A stretch of 60,600 bases of DNA, taken from IMG/VR virus record IMGVR_UViG_3300024428_000003, positions 1-60,600 of that record; one strand, written 5' to 3'. This document shows, one piece after another, positions 1 to 34,417 of this stretch. Below the pieces are notes generated by a model. It ran no database searches, was not told where the DNA came from, and saw only the letters and a list, made by a program, of their open reading frames with translations. The position numbers and the translations under genes were made by a program. Origin of the DNA: a virus. Its lineage: Duplodnaviria > Caudoviricetes. Positions within the stretch are counted from its first letter, which is position 1, and the number at the start of each line of letters is the position of its first letter.

Positions 1-266
1 AAGCGGGGACGACGAGGATCTTACAGTACATAAATTCGCAGAGGAAGCAATGTATAAATACATAGCTCACGCGATTTTAGCAACGAGAATCAATACTCCG
101 GAATACTTAGTTAATAGATTTAAAAGAGAATTAGCTGCCGCGAGACGTAATACAAAAATAAGATTATCAAATATTAAAATAGAGGAAATTGCTCAAGTTA
201 TGCGCAATAAGTCCAAAATCATAAAACACTAGAATATGCCAGAATTAATTCACACGTTTACGTCAG
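1..266. repeat. Terminal direct repeat, copy 1 (assembly overlap of a circular or permuted genome)
   Basis: Matches 60335-60600 except at positions 37, 139 and 264. ORF 50..232 is the duplicated 3' end of 59655..60566. Confidence 0.97.
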
Positions 267-3200
267 GGAGAATGAACAAAGACCTTGATGAGCGTTTAGT
301 TCCAAATGGCGAGTATAGAGATGCTCTAAACTTAGAAATATCTACGTCTGACACAGGTAATGTAGGTGCTTTGCAAAATATTCAAGGTAATACGCCTAAA
401 ATATATAGCTATAAAAATCCAAGCACAGGTGTTTACACCGAATGGGGATCTGGTTATATAAACGCTTTAGTGTCCCCTGTTAAAATAGGTGAAATAAGAG
501 ATGCAATAAACGAAACCATATACTGGTTCATATCAAGTGTAGGAGTGAGTGCTATTGCGGAGTACGACCAAAAAACAGAAGTAGTTGTCCCGGTTTTAGT
601 AGACACACAAGGTATATTAAATTTTAGTAAAGATTATTTAATAACAGGTATAAATATAATTGAAGATTTATTATTTTGGACAGATAATCAAACTGAGCCT
701 AAGGTAATAAATATAAATGATTTTAAAAGCGCTACTTCCCCAACCCCGGGCTTAACGGGAAACTTTTTCACTCATACGGTATTCAATGGTAGAGATTTCA
801 TAGAAGAGGACATTACTGTTATAAAGAAAGCACCAACGGTCCCGCTTAGCTTACAGCTGTCTGAAACACGAGCAGTAGATCAAGACGGTAATCCAGCTAT
901 AGTTGAAACTACAACTCAACAAAATTTTGTAACAGAAGATCCTGGAGCAGCTACTGGTAACTGTGTAGATATTACTTGTAGAATTCCTATGCAAATAGGG
1001 GAGGAATTAACTTTAACATGGGCTAGCTCGCCTTATCCTTTTTATAGGGTAGGTGATATACTAACCTTAGACGGGTCTGCTGTAGATGATGAAAATTTTG
1101 AAAACGAATATCAAGTAAGAGTAGAAGTAATGGCTGTCCCTCCAGGGGTTACACAAACTTATGCTGAAGTAAAAATACTTGTAGTCCCGGAAACTGTACA
1201 AGATGTAGAAATATTTTGGGAGGTTAAAATTGATGAGCCACCATTTTTTGAATTTAAGTTTCCAAGATTTGCTTACAGGTACAAATATAAAGATGGATAT
1301 TATTCAACTTTTTCCCCATTCTCTGAAATAGCATTCTTACCTGGTGAATTTGATTACGAAACAAAAAAAGGGTATAATCTAGGTATGGTAAACCAGCTTA
1401 GGCAATGTATCATAGAAGGCTTTAGACCCTCTAATATACCTTTAGATGTTGTTGAAGTAGATCTTTTGTATAAAGAAAGTAATAGTACAAGCGTGTATGT
1501 AGTAGATACATTCATTAAGGGTGATGATATATGGAACGCTAACGAATTCAATATAGAATCTGAAATCATATCTTCAATATTGCCGTCTAATCAGCTATTA
1601 AGAAATTATGATAACGTACCTAGGGTAGCAAAATCTCAAGAAATTACCGGTAATAGAATAGTCTATGGTAATTATCTTCAAAACTTTAATTTAAAAGATC
1701 TGTTTAATATAGATGTATCTCCTACTTTAACACAAACTATTACTCATAATGACAAATGGGACTGTGACTACACTAATGGCAGCTGTGAGCATACACTAAC
1801 GCTGGCAGGTGAAAGTTTACCAAAAGTACCATTCCAATCTATAAAATCGCAGAGAACATATCAAGTAGGTGTAGTATTCCAGGATAAATATGGTAGACAA
1901 ACACCGGTTTTTACATCGGAATCTGCTGCAACAACATTACAAAAACCTGAAGCAATTGAGTATAACCAAATAACAGCTCAAACCGATGGAAATGTCCCTA
2001 TTGGTTTCGAGGGTTTTAGATACTATATAAAAGAAACATCTAACGAGTATTACAACCTAGCTATGGACAGGTGGTACGATGCTGAAGACGGTAATGTTTG
2101 GATAAGTTTTCCTTCTGCAGAAAGAAATAAAGTTGACGAATCTACGTTCTTAGAGCTAAAGAAAAGACATGACAAAGACGAATTTGTATCAATACCTGCT
2201 AAATACAAAGTAGTAGCTATTTCAAATGAAGCGCCTCTGTTTTTAAGAAAAGTAATAAAAGTTGCAGGTAGTGTTGACGGCAGTGATAATATACTTGACA
2301 CTGGAATACCTCAACCAGATTTTACAGCTATAGATATAAAAGAAGATGCCCTAGAGGCTAGCACAGCTAGATCTATATTAGATTCAACGCAAAAGCAAAG
2401 AATAGTAAGAGTATATACAACTACAACAAGAAGTAATTGGTATAATGTAACTAGTATTCAAACCGACGGCAGTAACACGCTAAGAATAACAATAGAGGGT
2501 AAATTTGGGGACGACATGTCTTTCACTACCGACGCTAATGGTAATAAAGTTGTTGGGTTAAATGTACAATTTGCTACAGAGGATTTTGATGATAAACCAG
2601 AATTTGAAGGTAGGTTTTTTATTAAACTATATAAGGATTCAACTTTACAGGAATATATATTATCATCTATTAACTCAAATAATTATGCAGTAAAGCAATC
2701 TTTAAAAATGGGTTTTATTGGCACTGGTGTTAATAGAAGTTACATTACCGGAGGCTGGGGTTATACCGGTTGGTTCGTAGATCAAGGGTCTGTAGCTAAT
2801 GCCAACGGCTCTACTGGCGCTGCTTATACTGTAGGAGGTAATGATATTACAGTATCTTTCACGGGTATATGGCCACAAGGTGCAGATTTTAATGTAGGTA
2901 GGACAGTCTACAATCAATACAGAGATGCTGTAGATATACTTTTACAAGTTGGCGGTCTTTTTAGATTTGAGGAGGATCCTGATCAAGTTATATACGAGAT
3001 AACAGCGACCAAAGAATTTCAAAGAGTTAGGAATTACGAAAATAATTCAAAAAGAAACAAATACAACAAGGGATCAAACAAGAGAACTAGATTTCAACTT
3101 AAAGTTAAACCTATTGATACAGTAGCTAACGGTACTGGTTTATTTCAAGGACCCGCTGGTTGGTCTTTTCCTAGAGGAGGCAATCGCCCTATGAATGATG

Positions 3201-6067
3201 CAAGCTCACCTCGCATGGAGTTTTTAACCGTGCTTCCTGACACAGTAACTTTTACTAGTGATAATCCAGGTATATTTGAAACAGAGCCTAAAGAATCAGC
3301 TGAATTAGAATTATATTATGCGGCTTCTAAGGTTTACCCAATGAGTGAGTATGGCAACCCTCATATACTAGACTGGCATAATTGTATATCTTTTGGTAAC
3401 GGGGTTGAATCAGACAGGGTACGTGATGATTACAATGCGGTCACTATAGACAATGGCCCTATAGTTTCAGCCACTTTAAAAGAGCCTTATGCTGAGGAAA
3501 GAAGATTAACAGGTTTAATATATTCTCAAATATTTAATTCAACATCTGGTGTAAATAACCTAAATCAATTTATACAAGCAGAAAAAATAACTAAGGATCT
3601 TAATCCTATATATAGCTCTATACAAAAATTACATTCAAGAGATACCAATTTAGTGGCTTTATGCGAAGATAAAATACTTCGTATACTCGCTAATAAAGAT
3701 GCGTTATTTAATGCGGATGGTAACTCTAATGTTACATCTAACAATAATGTATTAGGGCAAGCAGTTCCTTACGCAGGAGAATTTGGCATAAGCAAAAACC
3801 CTGAAAGTTTTGCTTCGTATGGATTCAGAACATATTTTACTGATAAAAACAGGGGTGTTGTTTTAAGATTATCAAATGATGGCCTTGAAGATATATCTAG
3901 GTATGGTATGGGTGACTTCTATTCTGATAACTTAAAGCAATCTCAATACTTATGGGGCTCTTTTGACGATGATAAAAAAGCTTATAATTTATGTTTAGAT
4001 GGACTAACTGATGAATGGGCTAGTAGATTTCAAGATAGATTTTTTATAAAAGGTAATTGGTCAATATATACTCCTAATAATACAGTGGTATCTTTTAAAG
4101 AAGAAGTGAAAGGCTGGGAAAGCAGAAAAACTTTTAGTACAGAAGGAGGTATAAGTTTAAATGATAGATATTATACTTTTAGAAACGGTAGAATGTGGGA
4201 GCACAGAACAGCTGATTCTGTAAGAAACAATTTCTATGGCACTCAATATGATAGTTCAGTTGATTTCTTAATCAATGAAATGCCTAACGTAGTAAAAAAG
4301 TATAAGACTTTAAATTACTCAGGTAGTAAATCAAGAGAATATGTGTATAGCAATGATCAATACTCTAACCTATCTTTAGCAGAAGTAGAGGCTTTACAGT
4401 TGCAAAGTTTAACTTCTGAAACTTTATTGCACGAGGGTTGGTACACTCAGTACATGAACACAGATCTTCAAAATGGGTTTATAAAACAATTTTTAGATAA
4501 GGAAAACAAATATTTCCAATACATAAAAGGAGAGGGCAAATATTTCACATCCAACGATAATAATAATTTAGATTCACAGGAGTTTCCAATGCAAGGTATC
4601 GGTAGAGCCAATAATATAATAGCTCCTCCGGTAACTGTATTTAATGTGCATGTATTCGGAGAACCTGATTGTGCCATTCAAATACAACCCCCTAATGCTG
4701 ATAATAAATATTATGAAGTTTTAGAAGATTGCACATCTTGTACCGTATTGACATTGACAGGTAGCGACCCACAAGGCTTCCCACTTACATACGAGATTGC
4801 ATCCGACAACACTCTAAATGGGGTTTTAGGCGCTGTTAATGGAGACGAAATAATTTTTACGCCTAATGTATTAAATTACTATGGAGGAGCCGGCAGTTTC
4901 ACTTATAGAAGTTATAATGGATCTAGATATAGTTCTCCTGCTACTGTAGATGTTGAAATAATATCAGTTCCAGAAGGGCCTGTTATAAACTCAACGCCTC
5001 CAGCTGGTCCTTTTACCGCTGGTGATCCATATAGTTGGACAGGTATAACAGCAATAGATCCTGATCATACTTTATCAGAATTGGGGTGGAGCGTATCTAA
5101 TTTACCTTCCACTTTACAGTTGACTACTACAGGGAATGGTTTTACAGGAACAGCATCAATAACAGGGACTGTACCACAGGGCACATTCTCATACACTATA
5201 ACTGTTACTGACCCAGATAATCTTTCAGATAGTTTGCTAGTCGAGGAAGATGGCTTAGTTGCAGCTTTATTAAATCTAGATTTTGTGGCGTTTACAGGAG
5301 GCTCTGTGGTACCAACCACCTGGACAGATCCAAATGATCTTACATTTGTAGTTCCTCAAAAACAAAAAGCATCCAGTGGTCATTCGTGTGGTAGAGGTAC
5401 TTATAGACTGGTAGCTAACAAGCATGTGAATGGAGGTGTTGTAATTGGAAGACTCTATGTTGGTAACAGAGGAACCACTTATTTCGATTCACTTACCTTA
5501 GATGCTAACGGTAATCCAAATAGCCGAACTGGTGATCCTTATTCTCACCCACCCGGGGTGGGCAACCCAATACCAAGTGCTGTAGCTCAAGGAAATATTG
5601 ATGGACTAGGAAATCCCACCAATGAGCTGTACGCTAATAATGAGCCTGAATGGGGTAATGATCCAAATAATAGTTTACAAAAATATGTCACTCCAGCTTA
5701 TGGTAGTAACAAACAAAACTATAGAATATCGTATTTAAGTTTAACCGAGGACCAAGCCCAAACTGTAGCTAATGATTTTCCTGACACTTTTAATAATTGC
5801 TATGTTACATTTACATTTGAACCTGATACTTATAATGCAAATGGAAGTTTTAATACTCACGCGGACGCAGTTCAATTTTCAGTGATTCAGAAAGGTTCAA
5901 CTGCTGGAGAGCAAGGAGGTCCTGAAATATTTTCAGGAGGACTAGGTACATCTGGCAATCAATGTCAAACTGGGCAGCCTTGCGATCCGGCTCTCTTTGC
6001 TTATGTATCATTCGACGTTTGCACAGGCGCGTATTTACCTGATTACGATCCACTTAATCCAACTTAA
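236..6067 (+). CDS. Tail stabilization/nozzle-type protein with C-terminal Ig/cadherin-like extension
   Basis: 1943 aa. N-terminus RMNKDLDERLVPNGEYRDALN is typical of crAss-related tail stabilization proteins. Follows the tail ring genes. C-terminal repeats LTGSDPQGFPLTY...SFTYRSYNG and ITAIDPD...TITVTDPD. Confidence 0.75.
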   Translation: MPELIHTFTSGRMNKDLDERLVPNGEYRDALNLEISTSDTGNVGALQNIQGNTPKIYSYKNPSTGVYTEWGSGYINALVSPVKIGEIRDAINETIYWFISSVGVSAIAEYDQKTEVVVPVLVDTQGILNFSKDYLITGINIIEDLLFWTDNQTEPKVININDFKSATSPTPGLTGNFFTHTVFNGRDFIEEDITVIKKAPTVPLSLQLSETRAVDQDGNPAIVETTTQQNFVTEDPGAATGNCVDITCRIPMQIGEELTLTWASSPYPFYRVGDILTLDGSAVDDENFENEYQVRVEVMAVPPGVTQTYAEVKILVVPETVQDVEIFWEVKIDEPPFFEFKFPRFAYRYKYKDGYYSTFSPFSEIAFLPGEFDYETKKGYNLGMVNQLRQCIIEGFRPSNIPLDVVEVDLLYKESNSTSVYVVDTFIKGDDIWNANEFNIESEIISSILPSNQLLRNYDNVPRVAKSQEITGNRIVYGNYLQNFNLKDLFNIDVSPTLTQTITHNDKWDCDYTNGSCEHTLTLAGESLPKVPFQSIKSQRTYQVGVVFQDKYGRQTPVFTSESAATTLQKPEAIEYNQITAQTDGNVPIGFEGFRYYIKETSNEYYNLAMDRWYDAEDGNVWISFPSAERNKVDESTFLELKKRHDKDEFVSIPAKYKVVAISNEAPLFLRKVIKVAGSVDGSDNILDTGIPQPDFTAIDIKEDALEASTARSILDSTQKQRIVRVYTTTTRSNWYNVTSIQTDGSNTLRITIEGKFGDDMSFTTDANGNKVVGLNVQFATEDFDDKPEFEGRFFIKLYKDSTLQEYILSSINSNNYAVKQSLKMGFIGTGVNRSYITGGWGYTGWFVDQGSVANANGSTGAAYTVGGNDITVSFTGIWPQGADFNVGRTVYNQYRDAVDILLQVGGLFRFEEDPDQVIYEITATKEFQRVRNYENNSKRNKYNKGSNKRTRFQLKVKPIDTVANGTGLFQGPAGWSFPRGGNRPMNDASSPRMEFLTVLPDTVTFTSDNPGIFETEPKESAELELYYAASKVYPMSEYGNPHILDWHNCISFGNGVESDRVRDDYNAVTIDNGPIVSATLKEPYAEERRLTGLIYSQIFNSTSGVNNLNQFIQAEKITKDLNPIYSSIQKLHSRDTNLVALCEDKILRILANKDALFNADGNSNVTSNNNVLGQAVPYAGEFGISKNPESFASYGFRTYFTDKNRGVVLRLSNDGLEDISRYGMGDFYSDNLKQSQYLWGSFDDDKKAYNLCLDGLTDEWASRFQDRFFIKGNWSIYTPNNTVVSFKEEVKGWESRKTFSTEGGISLNDRYYTFRNGRMWEHRTADSVRNNFYGTQYDSSVDFLINEMPNVVKKYKTLNYSGSKSREYVYSNDQYSNLSLAEVEALQLQSLTSETLLHEGWYTQYMNTDLQNGFIKQFLDKENKYFQYIKGEGKYFTSNDNNNLDSQEFPMQGIGRANNIIAPPVTVFNVHVFGEPDCAIQIQPPNADNKYYEVLEDCTSCTVLTLTGSDPQGFPLTYEIASDNTLNGVLGAVNGDEIIFTPNVLNYYGGAGSFTYRSYNGSRYSSPATVDVEIISVPEGPVINSTPPAGPFTAGDPYSWTGITAIDPDHTLSELGWSVSNLPSTLQLTTTGNGFTGTASITGTVPQGTFSYTITVTDPDNLSDSLLVEEDGLVAALLNLDFVAFTGGSVVPTTWTDPNDLTFVVPQKQKASSGHSCGRGTYRLVANKHVNGGVVIGRLYVGNRGTTYFDSLTLDANGNPNSRTGDPYSHPPGVGNPIPSAVAQGNIDGLGNPTNELYANNEPEWGNDPNNSLQKYVTPAYGSNKQNYRISYLSLTEDQAQTVANDFPDTFNNCYVTFTFEPDTYNANGSFNTHADAVQFSVIQKGSTAGEQGGPEIFSGGLGTSGNQCQTGQPCDPALFAYVSFDVCTGAYLPDYDPLNPT

Positions 6068-6069
6068 TA

Positions 6070-7713: not shown

Positions 7714-7729
7714 ATAATAATATAAAAAT

Positions 7730-8071
7730 ATGGACGAAATAACATTATTATTCCCTAACCCCCTAAATGTATCAGTACAAATAGGAGACATAGCTTATTT
7801 TACGGATTCACCTAATGTATATGAAGGTCAAGTTTTGGAAAAGATAGGTTTAGTAAAAGGAATCAATCAAGGGTTAAACGCTATAATATGCGAAATATCA
7901 CCTGCTCAACAAAGACCAACTGTTAATAGCTTTATATTATTTCAAAAAGATAATACAGCTAACGGTGGATCTCTATTGGGTTACTTTGCTAGAGTGCAAT
8001 TTAGAAACGGAACCACAGAAGAGGCTGAAGTGTTTTCTGTAGGGTCAGAGATATTTGAGAGTAGCAAATAA
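7730..8071 (+). CDS. Small virion structural protein (hypothetical)
   Basis: 113 aa, co-directional with the tail module. Confidence 0.55.
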   Translation: MDEITLLFPNPLNVSVQIGDIAYFTDSPNVYEGQVLEKIGLVKGINQGLNAIICEISPAQQRPTVNSFILFQKDNTANGGSLLGYFARVQFRNGTTEEAEVFSVGSEIFESSK

Positions 8072-8102
8072 CATGTAATAATAATATATAAACTATACAG
8101 AT

Positions 8103-8759
8103 ATGATAGGAGGATTAATAAGCTCTGGTCTGTCAATAGCCGGAGGATTAATCGGTGCTGGCAAGAGGAAAAGAGAAATGCGTAAAGCGCAACAAGAATA
8201 TAATCGCCGTAAGAGACAGTACGAGGACTTAGATACGTCCAATGTATATGCTAACATGGAAAATACCATGGAAGATCTTACAGTCAACCAACAAGCCGCT
8301 CAGTTTCAAGCAGAACAAGAGCAACAAGGTTTGTCTAATATAATGGGGCAAATGCAAGGAGCTGCTGGTGGATCAGGAATTGCAGCTTTAGCACAATCAT
8401 TAGCAGGACAACAATCACAAAACTTACGTAGAGCTTCCGCAGACATAGGACAACAAGAAAGACAAAATCAAGTTGCAGAAAGACAGCAAGCTGCAAACCT
8501 ACAAATGTATGAAGCAAAAGGTGAATTAATATCTAGGGATGCTGAAAAAGACAAAGTGGAAACTATGTTTGGTATGGCTCAAGGTGACTTAGCTCAAAAG
8601 AAAGCAGCTGTTGAAGCTGGTAAAGCTAAAATAATGGGGGGCATTGGAGGAATAGCTAGTGGTGTTCTTGGTGGTTTTGCCAGTGGTGCAATAGGTAAAG
8701 GAACTGGATTTGGCGATTTCATGAGCGGAGCTAGTAACGGAGGCCAATCTCTGTTTTAA
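8103..8759 (+). CDS. Putative DNA ejection/pilot protein
   Basis: Gly-rich hydrophobic N- and C-terminal helices with a Gln/Ala coiled-coil core. First of three genes of increasing size, as in podovirus ejection clusters. Confidence 0.65.
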   Translation: MIGGLISSGLSIAGGLIGAGKRKREMRKAQQEYNRRKRQYEDLDTSNVYANMENTMEDLTVNQQAAQFQAEQEQQGLSNIMGQMQGAAGGSGIAALAQSLAGQQSQNLRRASADIGQQERQNQVAERQQAANLQMYEAKGELISRDAEKDKVETMFGMAQGDLAQKKAAVEAGKAKIMGGIGGIASGVLGGFASGAIGKGTGFGDFMSGASNGGQSLF

Positions 8760-8772
8760 ATAATATAATAAT

Positions 8773-10182
8773 ATGAATAAAGAATTAGTACAGGGCGATT
8801 TAATAGCTAATGCTCCCCCAGCAAAAACCTGGGATGACAATCTTACAGAAGGGTTTGCAGCAGGGTATGCAAATCACAAGCTAATAATGCAAGAAGCTAA
8901 GGCTAAGAAAGACGCTATAAACTCGAAGGTGGCTGGTTATATTGATGCTTTAGACACTAATGTAGATGTAACTGACCTTACGCCTACACAACAAAATTCA
9001 ATTACAAATTATTTAGTAAAGCAAAGATCTGAATATGCAGACGCAGCAAGTAGAATAGCAAAAATAGAAGATCCTACTTCTCCTCAGTATATGGAACTTA
9101 GGACTAAGATAAATGGTATATCTCAATCATTCCAGAATTTAGCAACCCAAGTTAAATCATATAAAGAAGATAAAGCTTCTTATCTAAAAGATTTTGACAA
9201 TGGATTAATATCTGATGGCAATGAAATAAATACTCTAAACGAAGCGTCTAAGCTTTATACTAATGAAGCTAGCTTAGGTGTAGGAGAGGGTGGTAGTTTA
9301 GTTTTTTGGAATGAAGGCAAAGAAACTTACGATTCGTATAATCAAATTCCTAAGCCTTTCTTAAAAGACTTCGATGGGGCTAATCAGCTGTTAGAAATGA
9401 ATAAAAGTATATACAGTGCTGGTTCTACTCTTACAGGAGCTAGAAAAAATATGATTCGCCAACAACTAAATAACATACTAATTAAAGGCGGTAGAAGAGG
9501 TTTGCTTTCTCTAGCGTCAGACGATTTTATAATGCAAGGCGGATTAGGCTTAGAAGACCCTGAATTATTTGCTCCTGGTAATGACGATGATTTAAGGCAA
9601 GCAGTACTGGACAACTATATGAACGTATTAACCGATACAGCAGCTCAAGGAGCCAGGGATAAAAGACCATCTAGTAGAGGTGGCAGCGGTGGTTTTAGCG
9701 GGGCGCTAAAAGACGAAATAAATGTTTCTGGAAATGTTGCGGATAAAGCTTTGCAGTTTTCTTTGCTAGCGAAAGAAGCAACAGGTGGGAACGCGGTGGC
9801 TATAGCTAATCAAATGGCAAACATAGTAAATTCAATTGATCCCACGTCTACAAAAATATACGTAACAAAAGGGCAAATGTATGAAAAATTTATGGTAGGA
9901 ATGGACGAGGAGGATAGCCCAGATCTTAGAAAACAGTTTGTAGACCAATTTGGTAATTTTAACATGTACATAACTAACCCCGCTAAAGATCCCAAAGAAG
10001 ACGCCCGCGGTATAAACGTGAACACTTCTGATCCCAGGTCAATGTTTGAATTCTACATAAACAATTCAGACTTGTCCGCTAAGGCTAAGAACTACTATAT
10101 AGATTTGTACGGGAAACAAACTTCAGGTTCTCAAAATAACAACAACAACAACTCAAACACTGGGTCGCTAGACAATCTTTAA
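8773..10182 (+). CDS. Putative internal virion/ejection protein
   Basis: 469 aa, helical, between the pilot protein and the giant protein. Confidence 0.55.
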   Translation: MNKELVQGDLIANAPPAKTWDDNLTEGFAAGYANHKLIMQEAKAKKDAINSKVAGYIDALDTNVDVTDLTPTQQNSITNYLVKQRSEYADAASRIAKIEDPTSPQYMELRTKINGISQSFQNLATQVKSYKEDKASYLKDFDNGLISDGNEINTLNEASKLYTNEASLGVGEGGSLVFWNEGKETYDSYNQIPKPFLKDFDGANQLLEMNKSIYSAGSTLTGARKNMIRQQLNNILIKGGRRGLLSLASDDFIMQGGLGLEDPELFAPGNDDDLRQAVLDNYMNVLTDTAAQGARDKRPSSRGGSGGFSGALKDEINVSGNVADKALQFSLLAKEATGGNAVAIANQMANIVNSIDPTSTKIYVTKGQMYEKFMVGMDEEDSPDLRKQFVDQFGNFNMYITNPAKDPKEDARGINVNTSDPRSMFEFYINNSDLSAKAKNYYIDLYGKQTSGSQNNNNNNSNTGSLDNL

Positions 10183-10186
10183 TTAA

Positions 10187-13100
10187 ATGGAAAAATTATA
10201 CGAGGCTTTAAATAAAAGCGGTAAATATACTAAGTCATTGGAAGACTTTAAAACTCAGTTTAGCTCTACGGCAGGGCAGGAAAAATTATATGGTGCTCTT
10301 AAATCTTCTGGTGATTATACTAAATCATTCAGCGATTTTAGCACACAATTTTTTAATACTGAAGAATCAGTAAAGACAAACGACTCTGCGGCTGCGGATC
10401 CAAGTGTGGAGTCAAACGCTACGGGATCCAATTGGGTAGATGGTTCGTCGGAGCAACTAGATAGTGGATTTGTATCAGAAAATAATAGAGGTAAAAGAGA
10501 AAAACTAATAGACGACGACTATAGTGGTACTATGATATCTAGGATGTTTGATGACGATCCTAACAATAGTTGGGCTGATGGCACAAGTGAATCTTTTAAG
10601 GATTCTTGGAAGGCCTGGGAAAAAAATAATCCTGTGTTCGCGAAAGCGGTTAAGGCGGACAAGAGCCTGACGCTAGGTAAGACGGCAAATATACCTGATG
10701 TTTTAGGCCCGCTTGCACGAGCTATATCAAACTGGGTGCGAAAAGACGACGCTGAAGACGAGGCCGCTATAAACAACAACCCTGAGCTTCATGAAAAATA
10801 CAGAGGGTATAGAAATGACGTTAGTATAGAAGAGCAGGCTGAGCAGTTTTATAACAGCAACGACTTAGACTTAAATGACACAAACTCTAATGCAGCATAC
10901 AATGATGATAAGCGCACTGATTTTATTGAAGAGTATTATATAAACAATCCTGAAAGCAAGGTGTTATTAGAAGAAGCTAACGTTAATGCTAGTGACTTCC
11001 AGGGCTTTTTGAATAGAAAAGGATATATAGACGAGTTCGATAAGCAAAAAGAAGCTGGAGCTTATGAGCAAGACGACTCTAATTTACCTGACAATTTAAC
11101 CATGCAGCAGGATCTTAAATCGTATTTTGACGAGTACTTAATTGAGACAGCTAGTAGAAATGTTGAAAGAGTAGTATTAGAAGAAATTAAAAATAACCCG
11201 TCTGAATACAAAAATATGAGTTTGCCTGAAGCGATGGGAGCTGCAGATGTTAAGCTAATGGAGGATCCTGAGAAGTACAATTACGGTACTCATTTGGATT
11301 TTAATAAATTAGAAGATTGGAATTCTAATAATTGGGATTCAATAAACAAATATAACGCTGAGCAAATTAAAAACATAGAAGATGCTCAACAAGCAAGAAT
11401 TGAAGAGACCGAAACCGGAGTTAAAACCGGTCTTTATGGCAGCGGAAGAACCTTAGTAGGCGCTTTAAATAAGCTAGGTGATGGTTTAGAAGACGTTTAC
11501 GATTTTGTAAAAATGGACGGTAAAGTGTTTGGTTGGGTGTTGCCAATTATTGGAGAAGGAAGACAAGCTAACGAATTTAGAGACTTAAGAGACAAGTCAA
11601 ACAGAAGAGCTTTAAGAGGAGAAGCTAATATAAATTACTTATATGCTGAAGGCAAGCAAGTTACTTTAAATGGCAAAGAGTATATAAAGCAAGCTAATGG
11701 TAGCATCAAGCAAATAACAAACGGATTTGATGTTTCTAAAACTATTTCAGATAAAGACAGAAAGGCTATAGATGATGCTATCGCAAATGGTGATTACATT
11801 TACGGAGCTGACTTTGATGGTTTTGGTGGTAGCATTATAGCAGGACAAACTATAGGTGAATTAGCAATACAGATTGTTGGACAAAAAGGCACAGGACTTT
11901 TAAGGAGAGCAGCTTCTTTAAAATATCTAGGTAAAGTTAAAAACTTATCCAAAGCTAGATTAACTAGAATGGAGTTAGGGTATAATAAAACTAAAGGAAT
12001 TAATTCTAGAGGTATTAATTACGGTGGAGTAACTGGGGGAGCAAAAGGAACTTGGGACACATTTGGCAAAAAGATACCTTTAGGTATAAGCAAAGGAATG
12101 GCTGATGCTGTAATATTCCAATCCGGGTATGGAGCAATGACTGGCTATAATCAAGCTAAGACAGCTGCACTGGATGCTGGTATGAGCATGGAAGAATCTG
12201 AAGCTATTGCTAATGAGGCAAGTTTAGGTATGGCTGCGCTATTTGCTTTAACAACACCAATAAACCCTAAGACTGGGCTTATAGATAAGATATTTAAAGG
12301 TACTGGAAAAAATTCCACAGCAAGCTTATTTAGACAGCTTATTAATGCTTCTGGTAATGCTGCAGGTGTAAGAAGAAACTTCGGAAGAATAGTAGCAGCT
12401 CCTCTGCAAACTAAATTAGCTAAATTTGGTGCGATTGTAGCAAGCGAAGGCGCTAAAGAAATGGTGCAGGAAAATGTACAACAAATAGGTGAAGCTGCTT
12501 TAAATAAAGTTTTGAACAAAGGTATTGGAAAAGATCTTTTAAAAGACACTTACACTTACGAAGACTTTGTAAATACTTCAGCATTGTCGTTTGCTGCTGG
12601 CGGATTTGCTGGTGGGGTTGGTAGCATATCAACTTTAACTGGCAGAAAAAACATAATGAATGACAGTGAAAAAGTTCAGAAGTTAAGGCAGCTAATACAA
12701 AACCCTGCTAAAGTTGAAAAGATATTTGATTCTTGGGTAAAAAACGGGGATATAACAAGAAAAGAAGCTGACGGCTTAAATCAAGAGATACAGAAGTTTG
12801 GTAGAAATATAAACAAAATGCCTAAGTTTCTATCAGATAGACGCATGTCAACAGAACTTTTAAAAGTCATAGACTCTCAGGAAAACATAAGTAAATTAGA
12901 AAAGCAAAGAAAGAACGCAATACCAGGAGAACAGGCCCTAATAGATGAAAAGCTTAAAGTTTTAAAAGAACAACAAACAAAATTGTTGGTAGACGCGCAA
13001 AACACATTAGATGCAGATAATAAAGTCTTCGAAGGCAAGTTTACAAAAAACACCGCTGCTGTTGTTAACTTTGCTAGAAAATTAGGATTTGGAGAAAGTA

Positions 13101-16100
13101 AGCTTCCAAGAATATTTGAAAACACCGACGCCTACGTAACCGCTATATATAGAGCTTTAAAAAGAAAAGAAAGATCTTATTTAAAAGCTGTAAAAGAAGG
13201 TAAGATAAAAGCTGACCCTGATTTTAAACCCCTAACAAAAGCTGAGGTTGCAAAACAAGCAGCTGAATCTGACGGAGTATATTTAGGGGCGGGTAGTCTT
13301 TTTATAAACAAAGAGATGGCTCGACAAACAGGTAAATGGACGGTTACTTCACATGAAATTATCCACCCTATACTTAACTCTTTAGTAGGTAGCTACTTAA
13401 ATCAGAAAGCAAACTACGATGACCTTATGAAGATTCTGCCTGCTAAGGTTAGAAGATCAATTAATAAAAAAATAGCGCAAACACAAGGTAAAGAAAAGCA
13501 AGCTATAGAGTTTTTAAACTATCTTTCTGATGCTGTTATTTCTGGTGAATTAGATTTTGACCCTTCTTTGTTTGATAAAATAAGATTGTGGTTTAACAAC
13601 ATAATAAGCAAGTTAGGCCTTAAGTCTGGTATTGAAAATCATGAAGACCTACATTTTGACGATGCCCGTGGTGTATACAACTGGCTTAAAGAATTTACAT
13701 CAGGTTTAAAAGAGGGCGGAGAAATAAGTGATAAAGCTGTAGAGGCTGTACAAAAAGCAGAAACAAAAGCAAATAGACTAGTTTCAGAAGATCCAGGATT
13801 AAGAGATCCTGAGAATGCAATGCAATTTTCTTCTAGTCAAGAAATATTAAATCTTGAAAATGCTTTAGATGATGCTTTAGATGCTTTTGCAGAAGACCCT
13901 AATAATCCTACTCTTGAAAAGAAAGTAGAAGAAGCGGAAAGATTACTAGAGGAAGCCGAAGAAAGGGTTGCTTCTGGTAGATCAGCTATTAAACAAGAAG
14001 CTAAACCTAAACCAAAGCCTAAAAAGAAAGTAGAGGCTAAGCCCGTTAGAACAACAGACTTAGGCCCTAGAGATCCAAAGTCTAAAAAGATTATGGACAC
14101 TTACAATGAAGGTATGGAGGGTGTCGAAAGAACAGAGTACAAGGCTAGTAAGCCATTACCAGCATCTTTAGAGAAAAAGCTAATACCTCTTTTTGAAGGG
14201 TATATTAATACAATAGTACAACAAAAGTTCAAGCAAGTTGGACCTGAAGCATTAGAGTTCCAAGATGCTTTGTCTATATTAAGAGCTGAGGTTGCTAGCG
14301 CAATACGTACATTTAATCCCGCTGTCAACAAAGATTTAGCAGGATATGTAAAAAGATACGGTGTACAAGCTAGGCAATCTTTAATGTTCGCAGACGCTAA
14401 CAAAGAATTTACTAGTGATATATCAGATGCTAAGGGAGTGGTCGACACTAATGATACACCGTCTATTGATCGTAGTGGCACAGTAGAAAGAGGCCAACGT
14501 ACTTTCGATGAGCTAGACATAGTAGACGAAGATTTAATAAACGATATTAGAACTGAGTTAGAAAAAGAAATAAGAATAAGAGTACAAAAAGGTACTTTGT
14601 CTGAAACTTTAGAAGTTAAGAAAGGTAGAGACACTTATATAGTTTCTTGGTTAGAAAACTATATACAAAAACAGTTATTTAAAAAGTTAATGAAAAAGCT
14701 AGGGGCTATAACAGGAGTATACCCTAATGCTGTAATCCCTGGATCTTATATAGACTTTCTAAACGATCCAAATACTTTTGATATAATAACTAAAGCTTTG
14801 CCAATTAAAAGCATTAAGAAGAGCTATGGCAAGTTATTTCCTCTTGAAAAAGTAGGTAGAGAAGTTACCCCAGAAGGCAACCCTGTATATAGAATTAAGA
14901 AAATAGAAAAAAGAGATTTCTTAACTTATTTTGTTAAAGGTAAAAAGTCTGCTGTACTAGAAAGACAGAAGCAATTATTTAGAGAAATACTTGAACCATT
15001 GGCAAAACAGGTTGTAGCAGACTATGCAACCCCCTCTAATTTAAGCGATTTAAAATCTATACAGGAATTGGCTCCAGAGAATTCTTTGGATGTTATTAAC
15101 GATATTGTTATAGAAGCACAATTAGCTAACCTAGAATCTAAGATAGATAGATACAAAGGCGAGAAAGAAGGTTTTGATATAATACAGTTTAGTAAAGAAT
15201 TAAACCAAAAAGACACTATAGATGTATTAGAGCAATTGGCTCAAAGAGAAAATATTACCGAGTTAAGAAAAGGTGTCTTGCAGGAGCTCATTAATAAAGT
15301 AACCAACGGACAAATCAGAACAACAAAAGACCTGATTAAAGCTGTTCATTCTATTGGAAAAGACCAATTAAGCACAAGAGCATATAGAGAATATGTTGTT
15401 AATGTATTATCTAAATTGCAATTTACACTAAGAACACCTAGTGTAGCTAACATAGTTAATGAAGGAGTAAAAGAATTTACAAAAATTTATAAGTACCAAC
15501 AAAAAATAATTGGTTATAATTATTCTACAACTAAGGTTAAGCGAGATTTTGACGAAGCTACAGATGATAAAAGCAAGGTTGAAGCTATAGTTAATTACTT
15601 AAATATAACAAGTAGATCCATACGTACCTTAGGGGTTGACGGTAATACAACTAATGAAAAAATATTTAATAATATATTAGTTCCTGCTTTTGGAGCGGAT
15701 CAATTATCAAAACTAAAAATAGATTTATTAAAAGAGTCTTATAAAGATAAAGACGGTAAAACTAGATTTAAAACCTACATTACAGTTAATAAAATAAAAC
15801 TAAAAGGATTAGTTCAAATAACAGAATTAAAATCAAACTTTGAAAATAATATTGATCAAGTTAACAAAGAGGCAATATTAGTAAGAAATTATTTAATTGA
15901 TGAAATTAACAGAGCCAAGCAAAATAACGAGGTAGATGCTGTAATTGGATTTATAAATTTATCGACAGCAGATCAAAGAGGAGCTGTTAGGAAACTAAGT
16001 TCTACTGGTATGTTTATGGTAAATACGCCAATAGCAAAATTAATACTGGAGCATGAAACTACTGCTAAGCAGCTAACAGAAGCTTTGGTTAAATATGCTA

Positions 16101-19033
16101 AAGGTGAAATTGATTTTAAAGTATTAACAAAAATACTCAACGGAGCTAAAATAAATTTAATACCTAAAAAATTAGATTTAATATTAAATAAACAAGGCTT
16201 AGACGGTATCGGGAGATACGAAACAGATCTTATTAAAGAAGAAATAAGCAAATTAAAAGCCAGCGGTAAATTAAAGTTTACTCAATATTCTAAAAGTAAG
16301 CTTGCTTTTGATCCATTTGATATGGCAGACGTAGTGACTATGTCGTTGTTTGGTGAAACTAAAGCCTTCAAGAACAGACAAGGATTTGAAAGAACTTATA
16401 AATATTTGAATCCATCCCAGCAAAAGCAGGTTCAGGAGGAAATGAAAAAACATAATTTATTTCAATTTAGCAAAACGCTTAATCAGGCTAAAGCTATGTC
16501 TAATAGAATAGACGCTCCTAATAAAGGTATAAGCGTATGGGATTTCGACGATACTTTAGCTACAACTAAGAGCAACGTTTTATATACATTGCCTAACGGT
16601 ACAAAAGGGAAAATAAATGCAACTGAATTTGCTTTACAAGCAGACCAATTAGCGGCACAGGGAGCTGAATTTGACTTTAGCGAGTTTAGCAAGGTTATGA
16701 ACGGTGCAAAAGGCCCAATGTTTGACAAAGCTGTTGCTCGTAATAAAAAGTTTGGTAATTCCAATGTCTACATTCTAACCGCTAGACCGGCTAATTCAAA
16801 ATATGCTATACATACGTTTCTTAAGGGAATCGGTTTAGATATTAAATTAGAAAATATATTTGGACTAGGTGATGGCACAGCTATTGCTAAAGCTAAGTGG
16901 GTAATTGGAAAAGTAGCTGAAGGTTACAATGATTTTTACTTTGCAGATGACGCATATAAAAACGTACAAGCGGTACAAGAAGTTTTAGAACAAGCAGACG
17001 TTAAGTCTAAAGTTCACCAAGCTAAAATACAATTTGCAAAAAGCTTAAATTCTGATTTTAATAATATTATACAAGATGTTACTGGAATAGATGCTGATAA
17101 AAAAATATCAGGTAATAAAGCAAAAATGCTTGGCAAAAAGAAAGGTAGGTTCAAATTCTTTTTACCACCCTCTGCAGAAGATTTTGCTGGGTTGTTATAC
17201 AAGCTAACTGGTAAAGGCAAAAAAGGTGAAGCGCATCAAGCTTGGTTTAAAAAATCATTGTTTGATCCATTTGCAAAAGGTATTAGAGAATTCGAAAGCT
17301 ATAAGCAAAACGCTACAGCTATTGTAAAGCAATTAAAGAAAAGCATAAAAAATATACCAGCTGGGTTAGGTAAGATTAATGAGACTGGTTTTACAAACGA
17401 AGCAGCAGTTAGAGTTTACTTGTGGACTAAAAATGGATTTGATATTCCAGACCTAACAGCAGAAGAGCAACAAGAATTGATAGAGGTAGTTAACAACAAC
17501 CCTAAATTGAAAAAATTTGCAGATCAATTAGATAAAGTGTTGGATGGTTATCCAGAGCCCCAAGATAGTTGGGTGGCTGGAACTATAACTACAGATGCTA
17601 TCAACATGATCAATACTGTAAAAAGAGCGGAGTTTTTAAAAGAGTGGCAAGAAAATGCAGACGCTATCTTTACAAAAGATAATATAAATAAACTAAGATC
17701 CCAATTTGGGGATAGCTATGTAGAAGCACTACAGGACATGCTCTACAGAATGAAAACAGGCCGTAACAGACCATCTGGCGCAAATAAGCTTACTAATCGC
17801 TTTATGAATTGGGTTAATGATTCTGTAGGTACAATAATGTTTTTCAATACTAGATCAGCATTGCTACAAACTTTGTCTATTGTAAACTTTATAAATTGGC
17901 ACGATAACAACCCTATACAAGCTGCAAAAGCTTTCGCAAACCAAAAACAATTTTGGAGTGATTTTTCAATGATATTTAATTCAGACTTTTTGAAACAAAG
18001 AAGATCTGGTTTAAAAAATGACGTTAATGCGGATGATATTGCTAGCGCTGCTGAAAATGAAACAAATAAAGCTAAAGCTGTGTTTGCCTCATTGTTAAAA
18101 GCAGGTTTCTTACCTACGCAGATAGCGGATAGTTTTGCAATCGCAATGGGTGGAGCTTCATTTATTAGAAATAGAATAAATATGTACGTGGCCGAGGGAA
18201 TGACTAAAGCAAAAGCTGAAGAGCAAGCTTTTTTAGATTTCCAAGAAATTGCAGAAGAAACACAGCAATCCTCAAGACCAGATAGAATATCGCAACAACA
18301 AGCGAGCCCATTAGGACGTATTGTATTAGCCTTTGCGAATACCCCTATGCAATACATGAGATTATCTAAAAAGGCTTTCTTGGATCTTAAAAACGGACGT
18401 GGAGACGCTAAAACAAATATAACCAAGATCATATATTATACAGCTGTGCAGAATATTATATTCTCTAGCTTACAAGCAGCTTTATTTGCGGTAGCATTTG
18501 ATGACGACGAAGAAAAAGCAAAAAACAAAGAAATCAGAGTCGCTAATTCTATGTTAGATTCCATCTTACGTGGAACTGGTATTTATGGAGCTATAGCTTC
18601 TACGATTAAGAATATAGTTGCGGAAATTTATACACAAAGTGAAAAAAGCCGACCTGATTATACGGTTGCTGCTCAAAGAGCTTTAAGCATATCTCCACCT
18701 ATAGATTCTAAGATGCGGAAGATAATGTCTGCAGCTAGAGCTTTTAGTTATAAAACTACTAGAGAGAAAATGGTTGGGTATGGTTTAGACAACCCCGCAT
18801 ATTATGCAGTGGGGCAAATACTTTCAGCAGGGTTTAATTTACCTGTTGATAGATTGATTAGAAAAGCTGACAACATAAGAGTAGCGCTTGATAATGAAAC
18901 TAAGATGTGGCAATCAATAGCACTAACATTAGGCTACAGCCAATGGGATCTAGGACTGATTGAAAGCGGAAAAAATAAAAAGAGTAATAAAAAAGGCTGG
19001 CACAATGTAAAGCGCGGCAGCTGGAAAGACTAA
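10187..19033 (+). CDS. Giant ejection (polyvalent) protein with zincin HExxH, sigma-70 region-2-like and HAD phosphatase-like domains
   Basis: 2948 aa. HEIIH at 13352-13366; sigma r2-like segment ~14168-14383; HAD motifs DFDDTL (16541), ILTARP and FADD; helical C-terminus. Confidence 0.75.
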   Translation: MEKLYEALNKSGKYTKSLEDFKTQFSSTAGQEKLYGALKSSGDYTKSFSDFSTQFFNTEESVKTNDSAAADPSVESNATGSNWVDGSSEQLDSGFVSENNRGKREKLIDDDYSGTMISRMFDDDPNNSWADGTSESFKDSWKAWEKNNPVFAKAVKADKSLTLGKTANIPDVLGPLARAISNWVRKDDAEDEAAINNNPELHEKYRGYRNDVSIEEQAEQFYNSNDLDLNDTNSNAAYNDDKRTDFIEEYYINNPESKVLLEEANVNASDFQGFLNRKGYIDEFDKQKEAGAYEQDDSNLPDNLTMQQDLKSYFDEYLIETASRNVERVVLEEIKNNPSEYKNMSLPEAMGAADVKLMEDPEKYNYGTHLDFNKLEDWNSNNWDSINKYNAEQIKNIEDAQQARIEETETGVKTGLYGSGRTLVGALNKLGDGLEDVYDFVKMDGKVFGWVLPIIGEGRQANEFRDLRDKSNRRALRGEANINYLYAEGKQVTLNGKEYIKQANGSIKQITNGFDVSKTISDKDRKAIDDAIANGDYIYGADFDGFGGSIIAGQTIGELAIQIVGQKGTGLLRRAASLKYLGKVKNLSKARLTRMELGYNKTKGINSRGINYGGVTGGAKGTWDTFGKKIPLGISKGMADAVIFQSGYGAMTGYNQAKTAALDAGMSMEESEAIANEASLGMAALFALTTPINPKTGLIDKIFKGTGKNSTASLFRQLINASGNAAGVRRNFGRIVAAPLQTKLAKFGAIVASEGAKEMVQENVQQIGEAALNKVLNKGIGKDLLKDTYTYEDFVNTSALSFAAGGFAGGVGSISTLTGRKNIMNDSEKVQKLRQLIQNPAKVEKIFDSWVKNGDITRKEADGLNQEIQKFGRNINKMPKFLSDRRMSTELLKVIDSQENISKLEKQRKNAIPGEQALIDEKLKVLKEQQTKLLVDAQNTLDADNKVFEGKFTKNTAAVVNFARKLGFGESKLPRIFENTDAYVTAIYRALKRKERSYLKAVKEGKIKADPDFKPLTKAEVAKQAAESDGVYLGAGSLFINKEMARQTGKWTVTSHEIIHPILNSLVGSYLNQKANYDDLMKILPAKVRRSINKKIAQTQGKEKQAIEFLNYLSDAVISGELDFDPSLFDKIRLWFNNIISKLGLKSGIENHEDLHFDDARGVYNWLKEFTSGLKEGGEISDKAVEAVQKAETKANRLVSEDPGLRDPENAMQFSSSQEILNLENALDDALDAFAEDPNNPTLEKKVEEAERLLEEAEERVASGRSAIKQEAKPKPKPKKKVEAKPVRTTDLGPRDPKSKKIMDTYNEGMEGVERTEYKASKPLPASLEKKLIPLFEGYINTIVQQKFKQVGPEALEFQDALSILRAEVASAIRTFNPAVNKDLAGYVKRYGVQARQSLMFADANKEFTSDISDAKGVVDTNDTPSIDRSGTVERGQRTFDELDIVDEDLINDIRTELEKEIRIRVQKGTLSETLEVKKGRDTYIVSWLENYIQKQLFKKLMKKLGAITGVYPNAVIPGSYIDFLNDPNTFDIITKALPIKSIKKSYGKLFPLEKVGREVTPEGNPVYRIKKIEKRDFLTYFVKGKKSAVLERQKQLFREILEPLAKQVVADYATPSNLSDLKSIQELAPENSLDVINDIVIEAQLANLESKIDRYKGEKEGFDIIQFSKELNQKDTIDVLEQLAQRENITELRKGVLQELINKVTNGQIRTTKDLIKAVHSIGKDQLSTRAYREYVVNVLSKLQFTLRTPSVANIVNEGVKEFTKIYKYQQKIIGYNYSTTKVKRDFDEATDDKSKVEAIVNYLNITSRSIRTLGVDGNTTNEKIFNNILVPAFGADQLSKLKIDLLKESYKDKDGKTRFKTYITVNKIKLKGLVQITELKSNFENNIDQVNKEAILVRNYLIDEINRAKQNNEVDAVIGFINLSTADQRGAVRKLSSTGMFMVNTPIAKLILEHETTAKQLTEALVKYAKGEIDFKVLTKILNGAKINLIPKKLDLILNKQGLDGIGRYETDLIKEEISKLKASGKLKFTQYSKSKLAFDPFDMADVVTMSLFGETKAFKNRQGFERTYKYLNPSQQKQVQEEMKKHNLFQFSKTLNQAKAMSNRIDAPNKGISVWDFDDTLATTKSNVLYTLPNGTKGKINATEFALQADQLAAQGAEFDFSEFSKVMNGAKGPMFDKAVARNKKFGNSNVYILTARPANSKYAIHTFLKGIGLDIKLENIFGLGDGTAIAKAKWVIGKVAEGYNDFYFADDAYKNVQAVQEVLEQADVKSKVHQAKIQFAKSLNSDFNNIIQDVTGIDADKKISGNKAKMLGKKKGRFKFFLPPSAEDFAGLLYKLTGKGKKGEAHQAWFKKSLFDPFAKGIREFESYKQNATAIVKQLKKSIKNIPAGLGKINETGFTNEAAVRVYLWTKNGFDIPDLTAEEQQELIEVVNNNPKLKKFADQLDKVLDGYPEPQDSWVAGTITTDAINMINTVKRAEFLKEWQENADAIFTKDNINKLRSQFGDSYVEALQDMLYRMKTGRNRPSGANKLTNRFMNWVNDSVGTIMFFNTRSALLQTLSIVNFINWHDNNPIQAAKAFANQKQFWSDFSMIFNSDFLKQRRSGLKNDVNADDIASAAENETNKAKAVFASLLKAGFLPTQIADSFAIAMGGASFIRNRINMYVAEGMTKAKAEEQAFLDFQEIAEETQQSSRPDRISQQQASPLGRIVLAFANTPMQYMRLSKKAFLDLKNGRGDAKTNITKIIYYTAVQNIIFSSLQAALFAVAFDDDEEKAKNKEIRVANSMLDSILRGTGIYGAIASTIKNIVAEIYTQSEKSRPDYTVAAQRALSISPPIDSKMRKIMSAARAFSYKTTREKMVGYGLDNPAYYAVGQILSAGFNLPVDRLIRKADNIRVALDNETKMWQSIALTLGYSQWDLGLIESGKNKKSNKKGWHNVKRGSWKD

Positions 19034-29944: not shown

Positions 29945-30700
29945 CTAAAGATAATCAATCACTTGCGTTGCGTCAACGTTAGCGATAAGATAGTCAATAG
30001 CTTCTTTTTTTATCTGTGAAACAATCACTGTTGCGGTAGGAACTGTTAAGCCGATATGCGCAGCAATTTCTTTAGCGGACTTTTTATCGCAGTCTAAACC
30101 ATAGAACATTCTAACAACATCGTATTGCTTAGTTGTTAAGTGCTCTTGCATTAAACTTAATAAATAAGTATTTAAAAGATCTATATTATAGGGCTCAGAG
30201 TTGTCAGGAAATTGATAAGCATAATTATCTTCGTCTGCTGGACTCATATCATAGCTAGTGAATATACTGTTAAAGAATAATGAAACCATTTTATCGTCTT
30301 CAGGATTCTTACGTATTTCATTGAGCTTATGTTCGGGTATTTTAATATCACCCCGGTTAATATCTATTGCGCGTCTTATTGCTCCTTTAATTCTTTTACT
30401 TAAAAAAGACTTTAATGTTTTTTCAACATCAGGTGATTCATCTATCATTAACCAATCTATTTTGTCTACAGCTTTAATTAAACCTGAGTTGCCTTCTTGT
30501 ATTAAATCGTTAATGCTTAGTACACCAGAAGCTTGTTGAGTAGTAGAAAATTTTCTAGCTAAGTTCTCTACAAGTGGCATAAACTTTACTATAAGTTCAT
30601 TTCTAGTATATTCGTCATAAAACTTTCCCTCTAGATTACATATAGAAGTTTTTAGATCTTCTTTGTATCTTATATAATTTTGTATGTTATATTTTTTCAT
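29945..30700 (-). CDS. Phage sigma-70 family sigma factor
   Basis: Region 2 LVENLARKF...DLIQEGNSGLIKAVDK...RIKGAI; region 4 LTTKQYDVVRMFYGL...SAKEIA. Confidence 0.9.
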   Translation of the reverse strand: MKKYNIQNYIRYKEDLKTSICNLEGKFYDEYTRNELIVKFMPLVENLARKFSTTQQASGVLSINDLIQEGNSGLIKAVDKIDWLMIDESPDVEKTLKSFLSKRIKGAIRRAIDINRGDIKIPEHKLNEIRKNPEDDKMVSLFFNSIFTSYDMSPADEDNYAYQFPDNSEPYNIDLLNTYLLSLMQEHLTTKQYDVVRMFYGLDCDKKSAKEIAAHIGLTVPTATVIVSQIKKEAIDYLIANVDATQVIDYL

Positions 30701-30704
30701 CGTT

Positions 30705-30740
30705 TATATTATCAATACTCATTCGTATTACGTTTGCAAA
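30705..30740 (-). promoter_or_regulatory. Early promoter motif, copy 1
   Basis: TTTGCAAAC-N5-ACG-N9-YGATAATATA directly upstream of the sigma gene. Confidence 0.8.
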
Positions 30741-32638: not shown

Positions 32639-32674
32639 TATATTATCAATTGTTCTACGTATTACGTTTGCAAA
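32639..32674 (-). promoter_or_regulatory. Early promoter motif, copy 2
   Basis: Same 36-bp consensus. Confidence 0.8.
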
Positions 32675-34381: not shown

Positions 34382-34417
34382 TATATTATCGTTACTCTGT
34401 CGTATTTTGTTTGCAAA
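34382..34417 (-). promoter_or_regulatory. Early promoter motif, copy 3
   Basis: Same consensus; overlaps the 3' end of the upstream ORF. Confidence 0.8.

Follow-up and report, generated by a model that had tools for sequence, protein, structure and literature searches.

Known solutions to the problem of the first phage transcript are promoters of host type, injection of the phage's own RNA polymerase, and injection of an enzyme that modifies the host polymerase. Whether there may be yet another solution is a question raised by a locus in the Caudoviricetes virus genome IMGVR_UViG_3300024428_000003 from IMG/VR, which was analyzed over its whole length of 60,600 nucleotides (positions 1 to 60,600; hereafter the window). 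A preliminary description of this DNA, made from the letters alone, had pointed to a peptide resembling region 2 of sigma-70 within a giant protein, and had proposed that the phage injects a sigma-like factor. The peptide, encoded at 14168-14383 on the plus strand, translates exactly to the quoted residues 1328-1399 of an open reading frame (ORF) of 2948 amino acids, situated at 10187-19033 (plus strand; ORF list and translation) as the last gene of the structural operon. A sigma-derived domain in a protein of this kind, itself a putative cargo, would suggest a fourth way, namely the injection of a specificity or docking subunit alone. Judged from sequence comparisons, the peptide appears to belong to a real homologue of the sigma-2 domain in a new context, around which we infer a mechanism.

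Sigma homology of the cassette

Relatives of the locus were collected from IMG/VR and metagenomes and aligned in several sets. A3 holds 47 aligned copies of residues 1285-1674, A4 holds 72 relatives, which were scanned member by member against Pfam and NCBIfam, and A5 holds 25 sequences of the sigma-like cassette, i.e. those of the window's type (type A, see below) and distant A-like ones. The A5 profile was searched against the 177,635 sequences of PDB, with Bacillus subtilis SigE as the top match (residues 52-133 of 8b3z_A; E-value 1.4e-4, 24.8 bits), followed by sigma-K (8vjl_B; E-value 5.4e-4) and then by three RpoS chains (E-values 0.47-0.92). Five of the six matches at E-values up to 10 are sigma factors, aligned in the same register as in the preliminary description. 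8b3z and 8vjl are identified as structures of SigE and sigma-K by PMC10141391 and PMC11486902, respectively.

Sigma factors were also found in the scans of the 72 relatives. Sigma70_r2 was the second most frequent Pfam family, occurring in 12 of them with a best E-value of 0.0014. Out of the 18,950 NCBIfam models, the seven most often matched families were all sigma factors (best E-value 2.2e-4), namely SigE (15 of 72), SigK (14), a second SigE model (14), SigI (13), a second SigK model (12), sigma70-ECF (4) and sigma-I (4). Ten members were tested singly. Seven of these matched NCBIfam sigma models at residues ~48-130 of the fragment, corresponding to region 2 of the models, and six matched Sigma70_r2, five of them at residues 63-110 (model positions 13-58) and the sixth, L012, at residues 52-67 (model positions 48-63). 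A distant member with ~23% identity, P0325, matched both Sigma70_r2 (E-value 0.044) and sigma70-ECF (E-value 0.035) in the same place. Sigma70_r2 clusters accounted for 12 of the 30 ESM feature matches in the Atlas.

By comparing profiles with hhalign, we found that 82 columns of the cassette align with residues 26-111 of the phage's own family of stand-alone sigma factors, at a score of 23.5 (P 0.0018). The reversed control scored 11.6, none of 60 column shuffles scored above 16.0, and none of 28 other stretches of the giant protein scored above 16.8.

The match to sigma-2, for which the SigE, SigK and SigI models are the closest, is co-linear over ~65-85 residues in regions 2.1-2.4, with the signal concentrated on regions 2.1-2.2, i.e. 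the core-binding helices. Shared features are a 'D-x-[LI]-S-I' at the start of region 2.2, a loop of the form [FY][ND]P..K/G, and an invariant arginine in a helix resembling region 2.4. An aspartate that in SigE and sigma-K corresponds to the D of 'EDLISIG', as well as a tyrosine, are conserved in at least 90% of A5, and the arginine (R112 of the fragment) is invariant in all 47 sequences of A3, which include all three cassette types. Region 2.3 of sigma-70 carries aromatic residues, including a pair of tryptophans. When A5 was aligned by eye with SigE and sigma-K, one tyrosine only was found at these aromatic positions, and the tryptophan pair has no counterpart.

A number of results weigh against sigma homology. 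All sigma-model matches in the relatives lie below the curated cut-offs, at 12-20 bits (Pfam 12-15 bits against 24; NCBIfam 14-20 against at least 185; P0325 13.7 against 42.9 for sigma70-ECF), and the matching relatives are close kin, so that 12-15 out of 72 do not amount to that many independent events. The window's own copy gave no Sigma70_r2 match at E-values up to 1 for the whole protein or up to 10 for fragments, and no NCBIfam sigma match. A six-frame search of the genome with the same Pfam family (PF04542) found the stand-alone sigma gene only, phmmer found nothing in PDB with the fragment as query, and searching PDB with A2 and A4, the profiles of the whole module, brought up no sigma factor. 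Furthermore, sigma hidden Markov models (HMMs) matched none of 211 giant proteins, and the profiles of cassette types B and C, each searched alone, matched nothing in PDB. Against 30 Flavobacteriaceae sigma factors the cassette scored 13.0 (P 0.077), with two of the 28 control stretches scoring higher. No match was obtained by BLASTP between the module and the stand-alone sigma factor, nor by Pfam on ten short or distant representatives.

Weighing both sides, we regard the cassette as very probably a real and very diverged sigma-2 domain of the sigma-70 family (regions 1.2-2.4), visible at profile level. The likeness to region 2 noticed by eye is thereby borne out as a remote homology through the family-level searches of PDB, Pfam and NCBIfam, with the window's copy being unmatched when taken by itself. 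Direct evidence covers type A; type B is connected transitively, and type C more weakly. Of the 80 Pfam families matched by the 72 relatives, the 25 that were listed include none for region 4, and neither region 3 nor region 4 was detectable when the part downstream of the cassette was compared by hhalign with the phage sigma factor and with full-length extracytoplasmic function (ECF) sigma factors (P 0.4-0.5). The module would therefore be at most a sigma-2-only protein.

Anatomy of the module

The cassette of the window occupies residues ~1323-1409 (14153..14413, plus strand), as delimited by the A5 matches in PDB, the sub-threshold models and hhalign, and thus holds the peptide at 14168-14383. 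Downstream of it, the alignment of relatives reveals a conserved core of ~235 amino acids (residues ~1433-1666; 14483..15184, plus strand), running from VERGQ..FDELDIVD to ..IIQFS, for which no PDB, Pfam or sigma match was found. Ribosomal_L22e matches, seen in 20 of the 72 relatives (best E-value 0.0051), were discarded; they are sub-threshold and lie on the lysine-rich start of the core.

The N-terminal ~90 residues of the module exist in three types, of which A3 contains 24 sequences of type A, 14 of type B, 8 of type C and one that is unclassified. Compared to the window, types B and C are 12-20% identical in the cassette and 57-78% identical in the core. Type B is homologous to type A according to hhalign (E-value 9.1e-6, 94 columns), and a local profile test gave P 0.0036 for A versus C and P 0.15 for B versus C. 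The comparison of A5 with alignment A7 was set aside as evidence on type C, as both alignments contain core columns, which confound it.

Searching 1.84 billion representative sequences with the A3 profile yielded exactly 100 proteins at E-values up to 0.001. Judging by length and matched range, these are giant proteins or fragments thereof, many having the cassette but lacking the core, and no ordinary free sigma factor was apparent among them. Two relatives in IMG/VR, L003 (9983-11161) and L004 (9977-10906), have a type A cassette joined to another downstream domain. Cassette and core can therefore recombine independently. The alternative domain in L003 still ends in LQFSK, while the L004 ORF stops before that point.

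In line with the preliminary description, the module lies in a segment of ~450 amino acids between two QFS motifs, at residues 1213-1215 (13823..13831) and 1667-1669 (15185..15193), downstream of an HExxH motif (HEIIH, residues 1056-1060; 13352..13366), all on the plus strand and located by regular expression. QFS occurs four times in the giant protein, compared to 0.36 times expected from its composition. At the module end, 48 of 58 aligned relatives have QFS, three KFS and one QYS, and both Q383 and F384 of the second motif are invariant in the 47 sequences of A3. Upstream of the core, a motif of the type Q/E-F/L/A/Y-S is found within 260 amino acids in 93 out of 118 homologues.

The giant protein as a putative cargo polyprotein

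No family in Pfam or PHROG matches the giant protein as a whole. Among the scored candidates, 190 relatives were found at E-values up to 0.001, and coverage by 120 homologues delimits conserved modules at residues ~1050-1200, ~1350-1670 and 2250-2948, with variable inserts between them. With at least three separately conserved modules, variable inserts and exchangeable cassettes, this giant phage polypeptide has the build of the polyvalent type. The conserved modules, i.e. the sigma-like and the C-terminal one, were found in none of 50,697 phage records by blastn and tblastn, and no cultured phage of this group is known.

Judging by gene position, the protein is probably a polyvalent cargo or ejection polyprotein placed in the virion. 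The plus-strand structural block runs from terminase over portal and virion proteins and then, across the record ends, to a muzzle-like protein of 1943 amino acids (236..6067, plus strand). This has a crAss muzzle C-terminal domain (PF25729; E-value 1.4e-8, 35.5 bits, cut-off 27) and also matches phrog_14478, a 'virion structural protein', with an E-value of 3.9e-135. Four smaller ORFs separate its gene, which marks the tail and cargo gene block, from the giant ORF downstream. For crAss001, cargo and RNA polymerase-associated proteins that mass spectrometry detected in virions are described as products of the genes that follow the muzzle gene (PMC10172136). The labels 'ejection' and 'cargo' are reasonable since the giant gene follows a muzzle-like gene in the same way.

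The HEIIH motif falls within the module at residues ~1050-1200, as located by regular expression and coverage profile. At motif level it possibly represents a zincin-type processing peptidase; no HMM, Pfam or PDB match was found for the segment. Further downstream, a segment flanked by QFS at residue 2093 and QFA at 2282 starts with WDFDDTLATT (residue 2119; 16541-16555, plus strand), followed by ..YILTARP.. and ..FADDAY... It resembles motifs I, II and IV of HAD phosphatases and has no Pfam or PDB match.

A virion RNA polymerase had been looked for in the preliminary description by means of its DxDxD motif, and the absence of this motif is confirmed, as the string D.D.D does not occur anywhere in the giant protein. 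PF00623 (Rpb1 domain 2, which carries the catalytic motif of multi-subunit RNA polymerases) was not found in the genome, and a search with PF00940 (T7-type) was uninformative, its controls remaining unmatched. The N-terminal ~900 residues (~100-1000; 10500-13200) are common to only 7 of the 120 homologues. They contain ADFDGF at residue 542, a mimic of the beta' motif NADFDGD, which was rejected as a polymerase catalytic motif, as the third aspartate is lacking and the region is so rarely shared.

A freshwater relative, L088 (MW202828.1; terminase 62% identical), encodes a giant protein of 3859 amino acids in the same position (741-12320). Counting against the mechanism proposed below, it does not have the sigma-like module, which is therefore not essential to this virion type, and QFS-type motifs are nearly all absent from it (one QYS). 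The protein is mis-annotated as 'reticulocyte binding/rhoptry protein'.

Early promoters and the stand-alone sigma factor

A free sigma factor of 251 amino acids is encoded at 29945..30700 on the minus strand (PF04542, 27.1-27.5 bits, cut-off 24). The ten copies of a 36-bp early motif reported in the preliminary description were recovered by repeat finding and regular expression. They have the form TTTGCAAAC..ACG-N8-9-GATAATATA and lie on the minus strand between 30706 and 39430, at 30706-30739, 32640-32673, 34383-34416, 35662-35695, 36747-36780, 37848-37881, 38610-38643, 38689-38722, 39173-39206 and 39397-39430. The regular expression finds all ten and three loose matches elsewhere, one on the plus and two on the minus strand. 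The motifs are highly conserved and contain a -10-like element, GATAATAT. As had also been noticed, one copy is situated directly upstream of the stand-alone sigma gene, ending 5 nucleotides before its ATG (30698-30739), and the mRNA of this gene would therefore have no leader or almost none. The leaders of other early genes are A/T-rich and ~15-30 nucleotides long.

The canonical promoter pattern of Bacteroidetes is TTTG-N17-21-TAnnTTTG. This textbook consensus occurs twice in the window, compared to three times expected by chance, so that textbook host promoters are not used by the phage.

Evidence speaks against the claim that the sigma-like domain reads the 36-bp motif. A genome with a type C cassette (G004) has ten copies of the motif, and two with type B have five each, in G003 within the 10 kb read and in G007 in slightly altered form. 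That the motif stays the same despite cassette identities of 12-20% argues against the cassette as its reader, and region 4 is undetectable. The stand-alone sigma factor is 70-82% identical across the compared relatives. It is more likely that the motif is read by something conserved, i.e. the module core, the stand-alone sigma factor or a host sigma factor. For phage phi14:2, a preprint (bioRxiv 10.1101/2020.03.07.982082) describes middle promoters with -35- and -10-like blocks that are transcribed in vitro by the Escherichia coli sigma-70 holoenzyme, and concludes that host RNA polymerase transcribes the middle and late genes. By this result, the host holoenzyme may suffice at the motif of the present phage as well.

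The motifs are also made up of nested palindromes (TTTGCAAA, ACGTAnTACGT, ATCGAT and ATATAT), and they are kept almost base for base in G003, G004 and G007, which exceeds what a sigma site needs. Such conservation, together with the palindromes, suggests that a dimeric regulator binds there too.

A proposed mechanism

Homology, module borders and gene position are observed, while packaging, cleavage, polymerase binding and timing are steps that we infer. In the proposed sequence of events, the giant protein would travel as cargo inside the capsid, as do the proteins whose genes follow the muzzle gene in crassviruses, and would be cleaved at the conserved QFS borders, possibly through the HExxH domain that it contains, in the way suggested for polyvalent proteins. 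After ejection, the freed module of ~50 kDa would use the sigma-2 cassette to dock on the beta' clamp helices of the host core RNA polymerase. Docking would draw the polymerase to the phage DNA as it enters and help early transcription to begin at a time when no phage gene is yet expressed, the stand-alone sigma gene included. The 36-bp motif would in this scheme more likely be read by a conserved part, i.e. the core domain or a host sigma factor, than by the cassette. As a whole, cargo polyprotein, cleavage at QFS and docking on the host polymerase form a tentative model, to which we give slightly less than an even chance.

Elements of this model have parallels in known systems. Polyvalent proteins, as treated by Iyer et al. 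2017 (PMC5512222), share the giant multi-domain build, HExxH and repeated border motifs, and proposals made there include delivery with the DNA, processing by zincin peptidases of their own, and a jump-start of transcription. They differ in that the HExxH domain of the present protein has no HMM support. The word 'sigma' does not occur in the article text, supplements aside, so that a sigma-derived domain is not among the domains catalogued in that text, and the cassette would add a transcription-related domain to this catalogue.

In the N4-like and crAss-like phages, virion RNA polymerases are likewise part of a giant protein, which is encoded within or behind the tail and cargo block and is presumed to be ejected for early transcription, and the muzzle-like neighbor of the present giant gene is of crAss type. 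Here, by contrast, there is no DFDxD or DxDxD and no match to a multi-subunit polymerase family, and the proposed delivery would concern a domain that binds a polymerase instead of the polymerase itself. T4 Alt, as described in PMC5512222, is packaged and targets the RNA polymerase of the host when infection begins. It is an injected ADP-ribosyltransferase that modifies the polymerase, whereas the module would be a stoichiometric sigma-like binder.

By description, T4 gp55 is similar in being a phage protein with sigma homology limited to sigma-R2. According to PMC7892883, the sigma-R2 homology domain is the only sigma-homologous part of gp55, which also has a helix-loop-helix motif, and it is through this domain that gp55 contacts the beta' clamp helices and recognizes a -10-like element. 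In contrast to the putative virion cargo considered here, gp55 is small, free, and made during infection for late genes, where it acts together with gp33 and the sliding clamp. The cassette also stands apart from sigma factors in general. These are free proteins of 20-70 kDa, whereas it is embedded at residue ~1323 of a late-operon protein of 2948 amino acids, reaches 12-25 bits only, lacks regions 3 and 4, and precedes an unrelated conserved domain of ~235 amino acids.

Alternative explanations

The alternative closest to the preliminary description is that the module, once freed, makes up a complete injected sigma factor, whose holoenzyme with the host core recognizes and melts the 36-bp early promoters itself. 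This we consider unlikely, as we do its fullest version, in which a packaged and injected minimal sigma, consisting of the sigma-2 cassette and a new DNA- or polymerase-binding core excised from the cargo polyprotein, steers the host core to the ten promoters before phage genes are expressed. The sigma-2 homology agrees with such a function, as do the ten conserved motifs with their -10-like element, one of them before the stand-alone sigma gene, the chance-level occurrence of the textbook Bacteroidetes pattern, the invariance of R112 over all cassette types in A3, and the precedent of gp55, in which recognition of a -10-like element is mediated by the sigma-R2 homology domain without region 4 (PMC7892883). 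However, phages with type B and type C cassettes have the same motif, regions 3 and 4 are undetectable, the alignment by eye gives a single tyrosine at the aromatic positions of region 2.3, and the phi14:2 promoters, served by a sigma-70 holoenzyme (bioRxiv 10.1101/2020.03.07.982082), indicate that the host holoenzyme may be enough. If true, an injected minimal sigma would represent a third strategy beside injected polymerases (N4, crAss, phiKZ) and injected modifying enzymes (T4 Alt). A full-text phrase search found no paper on an injected or virion-packaged phage sigma factor, its matches concerning reovirus sigma-1 only.

Less likely again is a helical cassette that derives from sigma-2 and has no polymerase role, serving instead in packing, unfolding or ejection, or as a binder of some other host factor. 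Such a change of role would fit the extreme divergence of the cassette, with similarity being undetectable in types B and C, the missing module in the giant protein of L088, and the largely alpha-helical nature that PMC10172136 ascribes to crAss cargo proteins. It is at odds with the concentration of the signal on the core-binding regions 2.1-2.2 and with the conserved aspartate at the 'EDLISIG' position, and the placement of a sigma-derived domain beside a strongly conserved partner suggests that a function has been kept.

It is improbable that the cassette serves host shut-off as a sigma mimic, which would occupy the beta' clamp helices and exclude host sigma factors without directing any transcription. 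The clamp helices are highly conserved among bacteria, which would leave the diversity of the cassette unexplained, and, with no RNA polymerase of its own detected (PF00623 absent, the PF00940 search uninformative), the phage needs the host polymerase on its DNA. Still, only sigma-2, the main core-binding part of sigma, is retained, the cassette is hyper-variable next to the conserved core, as expected in a conflict with a host factor, and phage proteins that displace sigma are known, e.g. P7 of Xp10 (PMC3985653).

Finally, that an ordinary amphipathic helical segment scores weakly against sigma profiles by chance is very improbable: the sub-threshold matches, the unmatched copy of the window, the unexceptional comparison with bacterial sigma factors and the kinship of the matching relatives would allow for it, but not the E-values of the two top PDB matches and the five sigma factors among six, the seven most-matched NCBIfam models being sigma factors throughout, the single register shared by Pfam, NCBIfam, PDB and hhalign even in P0325, or an hhalign score reached by none of the 60 shuffles and 28 control stretches.

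The phage genome and its setting

The IMG/VR record of 60,600 bp represents a whole virus, with a completeness estimate of 100%. A direct repeat of 266 bp (99% identical) is found at both record ends, at 1-266 and 60335-60600. It represents one of two things, a true terminal repeat or an overlap left by the assembly of a genome that is circular or permuted. The large terminase is 45-62% identical to those of podophages of Flavobacterium, Cellulophaga, Tenacibaculum and Maribacter, and because of this likeness the host is probably a member of Flavobacteriia.

The phage group is very abundant in marine metagenomes. With the stand-alone sigma gene as query, 8000 candidates were scored, all at E-values up to 0.001, and the 120 matches listed are at least 78% identical. 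The genome also encodes a GroEL-like chaperonin (43007-44563; phrog_5725, E-value 6e-134). Contigs of the phage group that carry the chaperonin have been binned in metagenome-assembled genomes (MAGs) labelled as Parvibaculum, Maricaulis, archaea, Dehalococcoidia, Aliivibrio and others, which looks like binning contamination of public MAGs. On small contigs of a Flavobacteriaceae MAG (G001:C7:57832-58059 and G001:C18:6018-6245) there are two ORFs of 255 amino acids whose Sigma70_r2 matches are weak, of phage type and identical in score, and these contigs may stem from a related phage or reflect a host link.

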